Source: Dictyostelium discoideum (lineage: Eukaryota). From it: a stretch of DNA of 64,000 nt. Location of the stretch: NCBI GenBank assembly GCA_000004695.1, contig CM000152.2, forward strand, positions 1,248,001-1,312,000. Direction: 5' to 3'. The position numbers and the translations under genes were made by a program. The notes under the pieces were generated by a model. It had not been told where the DNA came from. It made no database searches and was given only the letters and a program-made list of their open reading frames with translations. Positions 3,221-12,744 of this stretch are shown piece by piece (within the stretch, counting starts at the first letter, position 1; every line of letters starts with the position of its first letter).

Positions 3221-4764
<1,544 letters not shown>

Positions 4765-4982: not shown

Positions 4983-7900
4983 TTAATGATCAAAATTATC
5001 ACTGAATTTTTGGATATAACGTTTTGCAACACCAGAGAAAGCTAAACTAATTGGACTATCTGGATTACGTCTGGTTAAAGCAGTTGCAATAACTTTTAAT
5101 ATTAAAGAGAATTCTTTTAAAAGAGTCCAAAGATCACTTTCTTTAATTTTGTTATCTTCAATTAATGGTTTCTTTTGTGAGTGTTTATAAAAATCCAAAA
5201 GGTATGAATTAACTGGAGAACCATCGACATTACAATAAGGTAAGATACGAGTTGAGAAATAAGTATTCGAACCAAGGATATTTTTCAATTTCTTTAAATT
5301 TGAAACCTTGAAAATACCAGAAAGTAAATCACCAGTATTGAAATTTTCAGTGGATGGTTTTAACTTTTCAAAGTTTTCATTCCATTTGTTTGTAATTGTT
5401 GATGTTGTCGCTGTTGTTGTTGTTGTTGTTGTTTTTTGAGAGTCTTTTAAATCATTTGATGAAAATGGTAAGAAATCATTGGTAGACTTTAAATATTTCT
5501 TATAAACGTAAAGGTAGGTTGAAAATGTTTTTAATAATCTATCATTATGATTTTTTATAATTTTGTGGACAGTTGGTGGTAATGGAGGAAGTATTAAAAT
5601 TGAAGGTGATCTAACATAAATTGATGGAATATTTTGAACACAAAATAAGTATGAAAGGATATGAATAATGAAGTAATCACAATCCTTTTGATTGGTTGGT
5701 AAATTATCAAATACACCACCCTTTAACAATGAAACAAAAGTAAAGTTAAATGGTTCTAAATAACTGAGATGGGTGACAATACCACTAAAGTTATCCATTG
5801 GAACACAGTCTTTAGATAAATAAGTTTCTCTATACAAATAATCAATTGAAAAAAGGAATTGGAATTGAACTTGAAGTGGATTACCTAAAAAGAATGAATT
5901 ATTTAAAAGTGATTTTGTTGATTTCTTTAAAATTTGAACATCTAATATATCTTCAGAACTTAATTTTTTTAAGCTTGTAGTTGTAGGTGTTTTTGTGGTT
6001 GTTGTAGTTGCTGGTGTATTTTCAGTTGTTGTAGTTGTAGGTGTAGTTGCAGGTGTTGTTTTGGTTGATTCCGCTGTTTCTTCTTCGTCATCATCCCAAT
6101 TATCAGCAACAGTAATTTCTTTTTTATCATCATCATCATCCCAATTATCAGCAATAGTTTCTTTCTCTTTCTCTTTTTCTTTTTCTTTTTCTTTTTCTTT
6201 TTCTCTTTCTTTTTCATTTTCTTTAACTTGAACTTTATTTTCTTCATTTGATTTATTAGCTGAGCCATTGGTAGAATAATCATATCTACTAACTAAAGAT
6301 AAACATAATGATGGAGAGACAACTGAATTACCAATGATATTTGATAATCTTGAATTAAGTAATCTGTTTATTTTTTGTTTTGGTAAGCCTACGAAAATTA
6401 CATTACCATAGTTATCAAAACCACGTCTACCAGCTCTACCAGCACATTGTTTTGAGGTTAAAACATTTAGATAAGGGCTATCACCTAAAAATACAGAGGA
6501 TTTAGCGGGAGCGTTAACACCAACGGCAAGTGTTGAAGTTGCAAATACCACTTGAATCTTTTTACTTCTAAATAGATATTCAACATTTCTAAGATAGTTT
6601 TTATCACAACCACCATGATGTGCGGCAATACCTTGTGTTAAAGCAGGTGCAAGTGGATCTTTCTTTACCTTTTCATCTATATCTGATGATAATAAATTAC
6701 CAAATTGAGGTTTTAAATAATCTAAAGAGGCTCTTTTTGCTTTTAATCTCTCCAATTCCATCTTTTCTGGATCATTTGGTTCTAAATCAGCCAAAGCACG
6801 ACCTAATGATTTTTGGAATCTTTCAATGACTAGATCCAATTGTTTCTTCTCTTCAATGATATTTGGATTTGTATTTCTATGAGTGATATCATTATATACT
6901 CTTTGAGCCAATCTAGAACATAAACTACGATTGAATGAAAAGAAAAGAGCTGGTAAAAGATCTTGCTTTTGAAGTTCCAATACAATATTTGTAATTTCAG
7001 AGGCCCAATCAAATTTCAATGAATCATTATATTTTGGACTAGTTAAAGCTTTGACAACCAATTGTTTCTCTGTCATAGATGGTAAGTTTGTGTAGAATTG
7101 TTTCAATTCTGCCTGATAGATTTCTATGTGTTGTTTCTCTAAATTGAATTGTTTATTTGGAATATTTGCAAAGAATTTAACAGGATCCAAATGGTTTACT
7201 TTTTCATAACCAAGCTTTTCTTTCAAAACCTGATACATTTGAATTGCTTCACCAGCTATTAATTTCAAATCTGGTGATATATCAGAGAGACCAGTTTTCT
7301 TTTGATCTAAAGTTGCCATTGGATGTAATGGTTCAATGGTATAGGTTGGAAAGCTCTTATTATCTTTTGCAGGAGTTTGACAAAGGAAAAAGTTTTTCAA
7401 ATCATTGAAACGACTTTGATAATGAATCAATGATACTTTTCTATTTGGATCAATCTTTTTCAAAAAGTTATGAAAATCTGTTAAATTACCCAATGTGGCT
7501 GATAATGCTAAAAATGGAGCAGGATTGAAAACTAACAATCTCTCCCAAATGGCACCATCGACAGAGGAAGCAATTTGATGAACTTCATCAAAGATTATAT
7601 ATCTACAACGTTGAATAAAGTGAGTGTTCATAATGGAGAGGAATAAAATCTCTAAACATTGTGGAACTGTAATTAAGATTTGACAAGTTTCAATGTTTAA
7701 TCTAAAATCTCTTGTGAAAACACCTACCATTTTATGATTTGATGGTCTATGATTTATAGCTTGATAGTTCTTATCATATCTACCCAATACTTCTGCATAC
7801 ATTTGGTTGACCAATGCTTTTGTTGGACAAACGAAAACAACGATACCATCATTACTTTCTTTTAAAATTTGTTCAAAACAATAGAAAGAAATAAAAGTTT

Positions 7901-9357
7901 TACCACTTGATGTACTTGCACAAATTAAAGCTGATTCTCTTTTATCAACAATATCCAACAACTCTACTTGCCAAGCATCAGGTTTAAAATGTCTAACTCT
8001 TGAATCTTCAACTGAACCTGTATTTCTAATTAAAGTATCTGGAGAATGTTTCAATTGAAACTCGATTGAATTCTTTAATTGTTGATTACCAACATCAGAT
8101 TCATCCAATTTTGGTAGTTTCAATTTCCAATGATCATTGATAAAATTTGATAAATCTGATAAACCTATCAATGATTTTGAAATTGTATAAAAACGATTTG
8201 CAAAATCAATTTGTAATTTTGTTGATAAAATTTTAGATTTTTCAGTGATGAAAGATCTTAAATACTTTTGAATCATTTGATAAAATTGTGATTTTTCTTT
8301 AATACCCAATTCGAGTGAAGTTTCAATTTCTTTTTCTTCATACTCTGATAATTCAATATGTGTCTTAGTTTTCGATTGTTGTTTACGTTCTAATAGAATT
8401 GTTCTTTTCTTTTCTTCAATTAAATCTTCTTTTTGTTTCACCAAGAAATTAATTAAATGATCAAAATATTGTAAATACAATTCTGGTAATGAAGTTAATA
8501 AATCTAAATTATTTAAAAACTTTAAAAATGATTTTATTGATTTACAATCATCCAATTCTGATTCATATCTTTTTTTATCTTGATTTAATCTACTCTCCAA
8601 TAGTTTACCTATTTCACTCTTTGGTTTAATAGTTGATGAAGTTGTTGTTGAAGTTGTTGTTGTTGATGATGACGATGATGATGATGATTGTTTTTTATAA
8701 GATTTTTTTGAATCTTCTTTTTCTTTTTTAATTCTTTCTTTTTCCAACTCTTCTTTTGTTGGATTTAATTTATTGATAATTAAAATATTTCTTGGATCAT
8801 TTAAAGAGTCTGCATACTTTTTAAATGAGCCAACTGATTTATCCTCTGCACGTTGTTTATGTTTTTTAGTCTTAAAAGTGGTCTCTTTTAATTTGATACT
8901 GAATGCATCTGGTTCAATTGTACGTGTTGAATGAAAATGATAATTATCAATGAATCTTGTATTGATTGTTGATTCAGCATCTGGATAATTTTCACTTTGG
9001 AATGGTTTTAAATATTCATAAGCCTGTGGTGCAACTGATCTAATGAAATCATTCTCTACTAAATAGATACTATTATCAATTGAATTAATCTCTTTTGTTC
9101 TTCTTTCCATTTCTTGAATAATATCATTTAAATTATTATTTCTATCTTGAAAATTTGAAAATAATTCAAAATTATCAAATTCACCAATATCATAACCAAA
9201 ATCTTTTTTTACATTATTCCAAATTAATTTTGATTTAATTATAATTTCTTCACCAAATATATTATTTAATTCATTTAAATCTTTTGGTAATTTAATTTGA
9301 ATTTGAATTAAAATTTGATAAAATAATTTAAAATCTAAATAATCTAAATTTATATTT

Positions 9358-9403
<46 letters not shown>

Positions 9404-10539
9404 TACTACTACTACTACTATCACTAACTTGTTGTAAATATAATAAATTTTTATATGAAGCATTGTCTAAAAAATTTAAAACATTTTCATCAATTTTATA
9501 ACATGTTGGTAATATAAAACCTCTATCTCTAATTGATAATGATTCTAATAAAACTAAATAAATACAATAGATTCTATTTAAATTATTTGATATATCATTA
9601 TTGAACATTGTTGAAATAAGTAAATTAATTTCATTATCTCTATTTTCACTTTGTTGTTGATTAAATAAAATTTGATTTTGATCTTTAAAACTTAATTTAT
9701 CAGAATTAAAATTTTCAAATTCATTATTATAAAATGAATCAATTTGTTTGAAAAATTCTTTATTACAAAAGTATGGATAACCTCTTTGAAACATTGTTCC
9801 TTTTCCATAAATTATAGTTTCAATACATGAACCTTCAAATGAGATTGAATTAAATTCTACAACATAATCTAAAAATTTCATTGTTTTTAAAATAAATACC
9901 TCTTGAATATCAACTCGATAATATTTTTCAAATGATTCTTGTGCTGGAAATAAAACCAACATAAATGAAAACATATTCTCTAAAAGATATGATTCAATAC
10001 TACTAAAATCTTCCCACCATTTTGATTTAATTAATGTAAATTGAACATTTGAATTATTTAAAACATTTTTTTTATCATTATTAATATAATAATCAATACA
10101 AATTTTTCTAATTAATTTCTTTTTTAATTTTTAAAAAAAAAAATAAAAAAATTAAAAGTATTAATATTAGTAAAAAGTTTGAAAAAAAATTATAATTTCT
10201 AATTACTAATTATTAATTACTTACTAATGTATTATTTTTATAAAAATATTGATTTTCATCAATAAAAAATATTTGAAATTTTGTTTTTCTATTTAAAACA
10301 TTTGCAATAAAAGATTCGAAATAATGAAAGAATAAAATTGATTGACATTTATCTGTTGATAATAATTGTTTATCTTTTATTTTATGTGATGAAATATTAA
10401 ATGTTGAAAATAGATATAAAATTAAAGAATCACCATCAATAAGAAATGGTTCATCTGCTCCAAAATCTGATAAAACATTAAATGTTTTTGTTGGAAATAA
10501 TAAATCACCTAACATTAATTTTTTTTCAATATTTTCCAT
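4983..10539 (-). CDS. DDX60-like / Ski2-family superfamily-2 DExH helicase, about 1816 aa; complement(join(4983..10118,10225..10539))
   Basis: Helicase motif I ALICASTSSGKTF, motif II IIFDEVHQI, motif III LSATLGN, C-terminal domain motifs GIAAHHGG and FATSTLAVGVNAPAKSSVF, and motif VI QCAGRAGRRGFD. The helicase core sits in the middle of a very large protein, as in DDX60. The frame upstream of the annotated Met at 9974 is open to 10118 with an AG acceptor at 10119-10120. The ORF 10213-10539 starts at an ATG and ends on a perfect GTAAGT donor at 10219-10224, in phase 0, giving a 106-nt intron. A KEKE repeat and a poly-Asn stretch are present. Confidence 0.75.
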
Positions 10540-10941: not shown

Positions 10942-11964
10942 TTAATTAGTTGTTGTTGATTTTAAATTTGATTTTAAAATCATTTCATTTAATTGAATTG
11001 ATTTTAAATGATTATTACCATATACTAAAACTGAATGATTATAAGAATTTGTATAACATTGATTAATAAATTTTAATAAATTTTTAATATCAGAATTTAA
11101 TTTATCAATATCAAGATCTTGTTTATTTTGATTTTGTAATTTTAATTGATTGAATTGATTTCTTTGTTTAATTAATGATAATAGATATTTCTCATTAATT
11201 CTACCTAAATGGTAATAACAATCAACCAATTCACCAGATGTTGAAGATTTGAAAATCGATTCAACATGTCTGGTTAACTCTTTATAATGTTGAATTGATT
11301 GAACCAAGTAATCGAAATTATTGTAAACCAAAGACAACTTTTCAAAAGTTTTCGATAACTTTATATGATAAATTAACCAACATTGATGATTCAAATTCAA
11401 TCTTGACAATACATCTCTTTCAAATTTTAATAATCTTTTTAAAATATTCTCAATTATTGGCATCTCCTGATCAGCAGTTGACAAATTAACATCATTGAAT
11501 AACAATTGCTCACTATTGATAAACTCTTTAAATTCATTGATTCCTGCTAAAATCAATACCAATTCTGGATCCTTATTTCTCTTATTTTGTTTCTTTTTAT
11601 TGAATTCACAAGTGTTACTTGTATTTGAACATTTCCAATTCTCTTGTAATTTCTTTGTATCTTTATTAAAATAAATTTCTGGTGAAATAAATTCAACACC
11701 ATCATTACAATGGAAACAATAAATTGATGATAAATATCTTTCATCCTCTGTTGAATCACTACATCTTGAACATTTACATAAAAAGTTTTTACTATTATAT
11801 AATATTTTTTGTCTTTCAATTGTTGGTAATAATAAATCAACATATGAATCAACAATTTCTTCATCTTTTTCAATTTTTTTACATGCTCTCATTTCTAAAT
11901 TTTTATCTATAAAAAAAAAAAAAAAAAAAAAAGGAGAAATTTTTTATAAAAAATTAGTAATAAT

Positions 11965-11998
<34 letters not shown>

Positions 11999-12744
11999 AA
12001 TCCCCTTTGAACTATACCTTTAATTGTAAAAAATATATTTGGTTCACAAGAATGATTTAATAAAGCTGGTTTATAGAAATAACCATTTGAAATTGGTTTA
12101 CGATTAAAGTCATTTGAAAGACCAGAGAATGAATTAATATAGATTGAAGAAATTATTTGTAAAAACTCATCTTTATTAAAGATTGCTAATAATGATGGAT
12201 CAGAATTCTCTTGTTGTAATTGATTGATAAATTGTTGGAAATTAATATCATACTTTTCAATGAATGATTTATTAATTTCAATGAATTTCTCTAATTGATT
12301 TGAAAGTTTACCAACTGTTTCTTGATATTTATCACTTTCAATCTTATTTCTAATCATTATTCTCAATGCCAATAAACATGTTGATACATCACATTCATTC
12401 TTTATTGATGATTCAATCAATTTATTAATGAATGAACATTCCAATTGATGTGTCATATCATTTGAACAAATTTCTGAACAAAACCACATATTACATCCAA
12501 ATTTACATTGAATTGATTTATTATTTGTTTGTTGTGGTTGTTGGGATGGTTGTTGTACTTGTTCAACTTCCGATTGTTTACAACATAAGAAACAGTAATC
12601 TTTGTTCATATGAAATTCTAATGGAATTGATGCAAATGATTCTTCTGGGAATAATAATTCTCCAACTTTAATTTCATTTGTAGCTACAACAAAATTTCCT
12701 CTTTCATCATTATTATTTACTAATTTACATTTATCTGTAATCAT
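10942..12744 (-). CDS. SMYD-family SET + MYND zinc-finger lysine methyltransferase, about 563 aa; complement(join(10942..11906,12018..12744))
   Basis: SET N-region GNFVVATNEIKVGELL. MYND finger CFLCC...CKFGCNMWFCSEICSNDMTHQLEC. NHSCEPN motif followed by a GTATAG donor in phase 1. An aatatAG acceptor is followed by the SET-C region EEIVDSYVDLLLPTIERQKIL and post-SET cysteines FLCKCSRC. The intron is 111 nt. Confidence 0.72.

Follow-up and report, generated by a model that had tools for sequence, protein, structure and literature searches.

A probable DDX60 orthologue, encoded by two exons, in Dictyostelium discoideum

The DDX60 helicases form their own sub-branch of the Ski2-like helicases that is conserved beyond mammals (PMC4833184). 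[quoted passage not shown] Within the window analysed here, a stretch of 64,000 nucleotides (nt) of Dictyostelium discoideum DNA (contig CM000152.2, positions 1,248,001 to 1,312,000), two minus-strand exons (10539-10225 and 10118-4983) are predicted to encode a protein of 1816 amino acids (aa) that is, at a probability of roughly 0.85, the single orthologue in the genus Dictyostelium of DDX60, a separate branch within the Ski2-like DExH RNA helicases. Compared with animal DDX60 and DDX60L (human DDX60, 1712 aa), the predicted protein has the same domain order with the core at the same relative position, and is 33-35% identical over approximately 650 core residues and 23-28% identical in the N- and C-terminal blocks. 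The C-terminal motif LNxYxxDF(Y/F)KH of animal DDX60 is also shared, the protein ending with the family motif VNSYLLDFYKH (present in 76 of 147 family representatives), but the Dictyostelium protein, unlike animal DDX60, carries poly-Asn, poly-Ser/Thr and (EK)n inserts, and Pfam PF26167 is annotated on vertebrate DDX60 fragments but not on the dictyostelid orthologues. kDDX60 is the best solved relative by both sequence and fold, having RecA, winged-helix and ratchet domains, but differs in its length of 2174 aa, in its kinetoplastid-specific insertions (including an A-site insert that contacts the initiator tRNA) and in being described as two cassettes (PMC7773551), and its sequence aligns to the Dictyostelium protein over RecA1 and RecA2 only.

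The assignment to DDX60 rather than to Ski2, Mtr4 or Brr2 was borne out by several searches, with closeness to DDX60 judged by one-way best matches. Against PDB sequences (phmmer), the best match was kDDX60 (7ASE/7ASK; E 3.6e-70, 240 bits), with every other helicase at or below 102 bits, namely FRH/Mtr4 (91-102 bits), Brr2 (86), Ski2 (84) and Hel308 (55). With a helicase-core profile, 167 proteins were retrieved. Those informatively named were all DDX60, of a cnidarian, birds, mammals and insects, and the set also held homologues of Penicillium, Lentinula, a rotifer, green algae, a cercozoan, a cryptophyte and a microsporidian. An exhaustive hidden Markov model search with residues 660-1816 yielded 885 cluster representatives at E<=1e-30, the top 150 of which were mostly 1600-1900 aa in length with a core starting near residue 700-800. 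Matches in this search included the dictyostelids Acytostelium, Synstelium, Tieghemostelium and Cavenderia, as well as Protostelium, Phalansterium, Mortierella, Rhizophagus and an ascomycete, and full-length DDX60 of Ptychodera (a hemichordate), Branchiostoma (a lancelet) and a stick insect were among the best. With BLASTP, three collinear blocks were found against the Ptychodera, Branchiostoma, insect, fungal and Protostelium proteins, covering the N-terminus (residues 15-143), the core (716-1369) and the C-terminus (1498-1816), whereas genuine Ski2, the next family at 74 bits, aligned only over the two RecA cores. Compared with DDX60, Ski2, Mtr4 and SUV3, the 1816-aa model thus had its best matches to DDX60 and not to Ski2 or Mtr4, as the original prediction had proposed from the protein architecture.

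The Pfam order of bona fide DDX60 (PIN-like_DDX60, DEAD, Helicase_C) is also that of the model. From the N-terminus, the protein consists of the PIN-like_DDX60 domain, approximately 650 poorly conserved and partly low-complexity residues, RecA1, RecA2 with helical insertions, a disordered acidic and Thr-rich linker, and a winged-helix plus helical C-terminal region, located in the window as follows:

10005..10488, minus strand: PIN-like_DDX60 domain, residues 18-143 (Pfam PF23002), spanning the intron
7479..7970, minus strand: RecA1/DEAD domain, residues 822-985 (Pfam DEAD, E 4.7e-20)
7896-7904, minus strand: motif I, GKT, position verified
7578-7589, minus strand: motif II, DEVH, position verified
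7494-7502, minus strand: motif III, SAT, position verified
6420..6629, minus strand: conserved part of RecA2/Helicase_C, residues 1269-1338 (Pfam Helicase_C, E 7.5e-8)
6609-6620, minus strand: HHGG, position verified
6420-6449, minus strand: motif VI, QCAGRAGRRG, position verified
5934..6251, minus strand: low-complexity, predicted-disordered linker, residues 1395-1500, with an (EK)n run, two ADNWDDD repeats and a Thr-rich tract
6132-6149 and 6087-6104, minus strand: two copies of the DNWDDD motif, in the linker between RecA2 and the winged-helix region
4986..5957, minus strand: C-terminal winged-helix and helical (ratchet-like) region, residues 1493-1816 (BLASTP, Foldseek)

Motifs I, II, III and VI are intact as checked by position (GKT at residue 844, DEVH at 949, SAT at 978, HHGG at 1272 and QCAGRAGRRG at 1329), and the stretches corresponding to motifs Ia, IV and V were identified by visual inspection of the translation. 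Both the quoted motif set and the mid-protein position of the core in a protein of approximately 1800 aa (here 1816) were therefore reproduced. The C-terminal region scored 70-89 bits against DDX60 C-termini in BLASTP, and the region after RecA2 aligned both to these and, with Foldseek, to the post-RecA2 regions of Mtr4, Ski2 and kDDX60.

An AlphaFold2 (AF2) model of residues 745-1816, made from 30 sequences, had a predicted local distance difference test score (pLDDT) of 74.3 and a predicted template-modelling score of 0.72, with disordered stretches at residues 1427-1488 (pLDDT below 50) and 1651-1719. In a Foldseek search of PDB with this model, kDDX60 headed the ranking (E 1e-22, 24% identity), with Mtr4, FRH and Ski2 next (E 1e-21 to 1e-16, approximately 1000 columns) and Hel308, the Pol-theta helicase domain and Brr2 after these. 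Because kDDX60, Mtr4, FRH and Ski2 are at the top of this ranking, the modelled C-terminal part appears to have the RecA1-RecA2-winged-helix-helical-bundle arrangement of the Ski2-like helicases.

Orthologues were compared from D. cf. discoideum (KAM9989440.1, 1807 aa; 95% identity in full-length alignment, 92% in the best local BLASTP match), D. firmibasis (RB653_004446, 1781 aa; 80% and 79%) and Polysphondylium violaceum (CYY_002813, 1641 aa; 48% and 43%). All three share the start, the junction of exons 1 and 2 and the intron position, differ in the lengths of their low-complexity tracts, and carry only the database names 'hypothetical protein' or 'DEAD/DEAH box helicase'. The P. violaceum gene differs further in having a second intron and in being without the acidic linker; this second intron (L001 3606-3677) is short and lies near the codon matching Met154, with no such intron in the window gene. 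In the middle region, poly-Ser/poly-Asn (approximately 9000-9100, minus strand, residues ~340-360) and poly-Ser/Thr (approximately 8230-8290, minus strand, residues ~583-600) tracts vary in length among D. discoideum-like species, with D. firmibasis and P. violaceum having shorter tracts or none, and are typical Dictyostelium homopolymer expansion. One DDX60-like copy was seen in each Dictyostelium-genus species, and the gene is under purifying selection. DDX60-like paralogues were observed elsewhere among the dictyostelids, with two in Acytostelium subglobosum and three in Synstelium polycarpum, some with very long C-terminal extensions (2183-3275 aa).

Family and fold suggest a mechanism in which four core domains would close around single-stranded RNA and ATP hydrolysis would drive 3'-to-5' translocation or remodelling of ribonucleoproteins, as in Mtr4, Ski2 and Hel308, with the N- and C-terminal regions providing targeting. 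More tentatively, by analogy with kDDX60, the substrate could be the translation machinery or messenger ribonucleoproteins (40S/43S-associated), which would also fit the suggested action of human DDX60 on translation driven by internal ribosome entry sites. A different function, that of an innate-immune, nucleic-acid-sensing or antiviral amoeba helicase representing an early form of the interferon-induced vertebrate role, would be in keeping with the induction and antiviral activity of the vertebrate proteins, with the occurrence in cnidarians and brachiopods of DDX60 modules fused to TRADD-N immune adaptors (PMC8195603), and with a family assignment that is itself solid. However, such a function is improbable given that the family is spread across eukaryotes, including fungi, algae and kinetoplastids, that its kinetoplastid member is a fitness-relevant 43S component (PMC7773551), and that mouse DDX60 is dispensable for interferon induction (PMC4833184). 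Further, the one copy seen per Dictyostelium species, evolving under purifying selection and in conserved synteny, is unlike a fast-evolving, expanded defence gene. To our knowledge, amoebae are without an interferon system and its signalling, so the regulation that defines the vertebrate DDX60 genes cannot apply to them. Interferon inducibility is a vertebrate regulatory layer, and the TRADD-N fusions in some invertebrates are the sole hint of immune use outside vertebrates. A dedicated immune-sensing role would be less likely than a translation-linked one.

Members of the family occur in fungi, algae, kinetoplastids, cercozoans, cryptophytes and many amoebozoans, and an amoeba member is expected. 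Because the family is found throughout eukaryotes, the presence of DDX60 in an amoeba says little about immunity, and the proposed relevance of this gene to the evolution of nucleic-acid-sensing immunity is without support, the family being pan-eukaryotic and the gene a single conserved copy in Dictyostelium species. In the parts of the literature mentioning both DDX60 and Dictyostelium that were available, the gene is not discussed.

A candidate link to translation was observed in the disordered linker, where DNWDDD occurs at residues 1429 and 1444 within two ADNWDDD repeats that follow the (EK)n run. By residue identities, DNWDDD agrees with the core of eIF3j's N-terminal acidic motif (D50-N51-W52-D53), in which Trp52 inserts into a pocket of the eIF3b RNA recognition motif (PMC2824034). 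There are three ADNWDDD repeats in D. cf. discoideum, two in D. firmibasis and none in P. violaceum. Across 118 full-length family representatives, the strict motif was present in 21 against 0.34 expected from shuffling and a relaxed form in 41 against 2.3 expected, with the caveat that whole-sequence shuffles underestimate chance motif matches in acidic tails. In the other representatives the motif lies mostly in C-terminal tails (those name-checked being fungal), while in DDX60 of Ptychodera and Branchiostoma it is at the extreme N-terminus, as opposed to the inter-domain linker here. Similar acidic-Trp motifs are seen in the tails of many DDX60 homologues of fungi, protists and invertebrates. 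The Pfam eIF3j family remained below threshold on the linker (17.0 bits here and 21.7 in D. cf. discoideum, cut-off 28.9), and no eIF3j chain was found in PDB by phmmer with 41-aa and 23-aa linker peptides. The wider proposal, that the linker motifs may mimic eIF3j, that DDX60 helicases may dock on eIF3/43S across eukaryotes and that the ancestral job of DDX60 may have been the control of translation initiation, is doubtful, and the eIF3j-like similarity is best regarded as a lead and not as a finding. If it were true, Dictyostelium would be a tractable system for testing DDX60-eIF3 docking.

The gene model was drawn from very AT-rich DNA, in which coding stretches have a G+C content (GC) of approximately 25-32%, spacers of 10-15%, and homopolymer tracts occur. 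The open reading frame (ORF) listing of the window gives a 1663-aa ORF at 4983..9974 (minus strand), which sits inside the second exon of the following model and whose start ATG (9974) corresponds to internal Met154:

10539..10225, minus strand: exon 1, ATG start, 315 nt, 105 codons, residues 1-105
10224..10119, minus strand: intron 1, 106 nt, phase 0, 8.5% GC, GTAAGT at 10224-10219, ending ...AAAAAAG
10118..4983, minus strand: exon 2, 5136 nt, residues 106-1816, TAA stop at 4983-4985

Joining the exons in phase 0 gives 1816 codons with zero internal stops, and the GC of the sequence flanking the intron is 18% in exon 1 and 16% at the start of exon 2, compared with 8.5% in the intron itself. 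Upstream of ATG 9974 the frame remains open for 52 codons, until a TAA at 10133-10131, and the acceptor AG at 10120-10119 leaves 48 of the 52 downstream of it; the 48 further open codons of the original prediction are thus correct for the codons after the acceptor and not for the open frame as a whole. The 105-codon ATG exon, the GTAAGT donor and the 106-nt gap were all recovered where they had been placed. In a collection of 15 billion proteins, no exact match was found to the 1816-aa model or to the 1663-aa ORF. A pseudogene reading was rejected on the basis of the intact frame and the excess of third-codon-position differences. Small antisense or overlapping ORFs inside the gene (e.g. 5969-6283 and 5995-6231) were rejected as low-complexity artefacts running through the (EK)n and Thr-rich tracts.

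The reading of the 9974 ATG as internal, with exon 10539-10225 belonging to the helicase gene, is supported by comparison with the relatives and by domain matches that run across the junction. The orthologue models of D. cf. discoideum, D. firmibasis and P. violaceum all begin 'ME...', and the junction, which reads '...YKNNTL|KLIRK...' here, lies in a block conserved across the four species as '...YKN(N/S)(T/S/N)L|(K/R)LIRK...'. When two of these proteins were mapped onto their genomic loci, an intron was found at the identical position in D. firmibasis (L002 6319-6757, 439 nt) and P. violaceum (L001 3370-3449, 80 nt), such that the intron position is kept in three species while its sequence and length (106, 439 and 80 nt) are not. 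Differences from D. firmibasis at codon positions 1/2/3 number 9/5/21 in exon 1 and 235/147/448 in the whole coding sequence, and because they concentrate at third positions exon 1 is likely to be coding and constrained. Both the PF23002 alignment (residues 18-143) and an hhalign alignment to vole DDX60 cross residue 105/106, and because most of the conserved residues of the N-terminal domain lie in exon 1, the 9974 ATG is best placed within the gene. The internal start and the additional 5' exon of the original prediction are therefore borne out, although the description of that exon as previously unjoined holds for the raw ORF list only, as the exons are already joined in the annotated models of the three relatives (NCBI).

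The gene model could instead be wrong, with exon 1 derived from another transcript or non-coding and translation starting at Met154 (9974) or elsewhere, as might be argued from the computational origin of the orthologue models and from a PF23002 match that is only at threshold. This is very improbable, since exon 1 holds IDGDSL, Q66 and E75, the most conserved part of the N-terminal domain of the family; homology to animal and fungal DDX60 N-termini starts at residues 15-21 and crosses the junction; and the codon-position bias of exon 1 indicates coding constraint. Further, donor and acceptor both fit the consensus at an intron whose position, and not its length, is conserved in three species, and the 400 nt 5' of exon 1 have the low GC (9.5%) and long A/T runs typical of intergenic DNA.

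For the N-terminal domain itself, PF23002 scored 27.2 bits on the model against a cut-off of 27, a marginal match, and 28.3 and 36.1 bits on the D. firmibasis and P. violaceum orthologues, respectively. With hhalign, a dictyostelid N-terminal profile matched vole DDX60 residues 21-107 over model residues 17-114 (probability 92.5%, E 4.8e-7), and BLASTP against the N-termini of full-length homologues gave E values of 3.6e-4 to 2.8e-8. A word-indexed search with the N-terminal alignment returned no matches, missing the known orthologues as well. Among 87 family N-termini, the most conserved residues were D25, E30, F32, I34-D35-G36-D37-S38-L39, Q66 and E75 in exon 1 and R109 in exon 2, with acidic residues at frequencies of 86% at D25, 79% at D35 (His 15%), 95% at D37 and 94% at E75; positions 34-39 served to select the aligned N-termini, such that their conservation is inflated. 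The D25/D35/D37/E75 cluster raises the possibility that the PIN-like domain may be an active nuclease. No literature joining 'DDX60' with 'PIN-like' was found.

Several points weigh against the two-exon DDX60 assignment or the functional reading drawn from it. The splice junction is placed by homology, conservation and consensus signals, and the orthologue models used for it are themselves predictions. PF23002 clears its cut-off by just 0.2 bits on the 1816-aa protein, and an AF2 model of the N-terminal 340 residues from 7 sequences was poor (pLDDT 40.8), such that its fold is not usable and its alternating strands and helices were not treated as evidence. At the other end of the protein, precomputed matches to PF26076 (WHD_DDX60) exist on the three orthologues and are marked 'weak' or 'faint' for D. 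firmibasis and P. violaceum, and with the Pfam copy used for the model PF26076 goes unreported on bona fide DDX60 as well. Finally, the 43S contacts of kDDX60 are made mostly through kinetoplastid-specific insertions that, according to the authors, are absent from the mammalian homologue (PMC7773551), and transfer of the 43S role to the amoeba protein is uncertain for that reason.

Assignment to a different helicase family was also considered. That the protein is the amoeba orthologue of Ski2 or Mtr4, and so an exosome cofactor to which long lineage-specific extensions have been added, is extremely unlikely: its core and predicted fold are indeed Ski2-like, Ski2, Mtr4 and FRH sharing both the DExH core motifs and the RecA1-RecA2-winged-helix-helical-bundle fold with it, and some database entries label its relatives 'Ski2p' or 'SKI2 subfamily', but the sequence scores of Mtr4, FRH and Ski2 (84-102 bits) are less than half that of kDDX60. 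True Ski2 does not extend beyond the RecA cores in alignment, the N-terminal 800 residues are unrelated to it and to Mtr4 and FRH, and the N- and C-terminal blocks match DDX60 proteins. The arch (or KOW insertion), DSHCT and Ski2 N-terminal domains (PF13234, PF08148 and PF17911) were not found in the model at E<=0.1 and were present on the Ski2 comparison protein. A Brr2/ASCC3/Slh1-type or SUV3-type helicase can be dismissed, as Brr2, ASCC3 and Slh1 appear among the PDB matches only through RecA2 and at no more than 86 bits, Brr2 falls below Mtr4 and Ski2 in the fold search, Pfam found one DEAD/Helicase_C pair with neither a Sec63 domain nor a second helicase cassette nor the SUV3 family in the model, and the 56 PDB sequence matches at E<=0.001 included no SUV3 chain. 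The Ski2/Mtr4, Brr2/ASCC3 and SUV3 assignments were accordingly rejected on Pfam, PDB phmmer, BLASTP and fold searches, leaving DDX60 as the preferred family.

In the surrounding sequence, a WD40-repeat gene at 3875-~4760 (plus strand) is convergent with the helicase gene, facing its 3' end, and is broken near 4270-4500 by an extremely AT-rich intron that comes out as poly-Ile in a naive ORF scan. D. firmibasis has this convergent WD40 neighbour too (L002 11987-13352). Immediately upstream of the helicase gene are two adjacent ORFs of 266 and 316 aa at 10942-12744 (minus strand), which probably belong to one gene interrupted by a short intron, D. firmibasis having a 576-aa gene at the matching position. 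The first of these ORFs has a Cys-rich stretch and a SET-domain match below threshold (21.2 bits, cut-off 22.4). A tRNA scan of the window was empty.

What is new here is a gene model and family label for a large helicase, the family itself being already known and widespread. Its practical value lies in a correct start, exon structure and family label for a protein whose relatives carry database labels such as 'hypothetical protein', 'DEAD/DEAH box helicase' and even 'Ski2p'. More broadly, DDX60 is indicated to be an old, widely kept eukaryotic helicase and not a vertebrate immune invention, which moves the question from when immunity acquired DDX60 to what its housekeeping role is. A single-copy gene in a genetically tractable amoeba could help to address that role, with the eIF3j-like motif offering a concrete, testable link to translation initiation.

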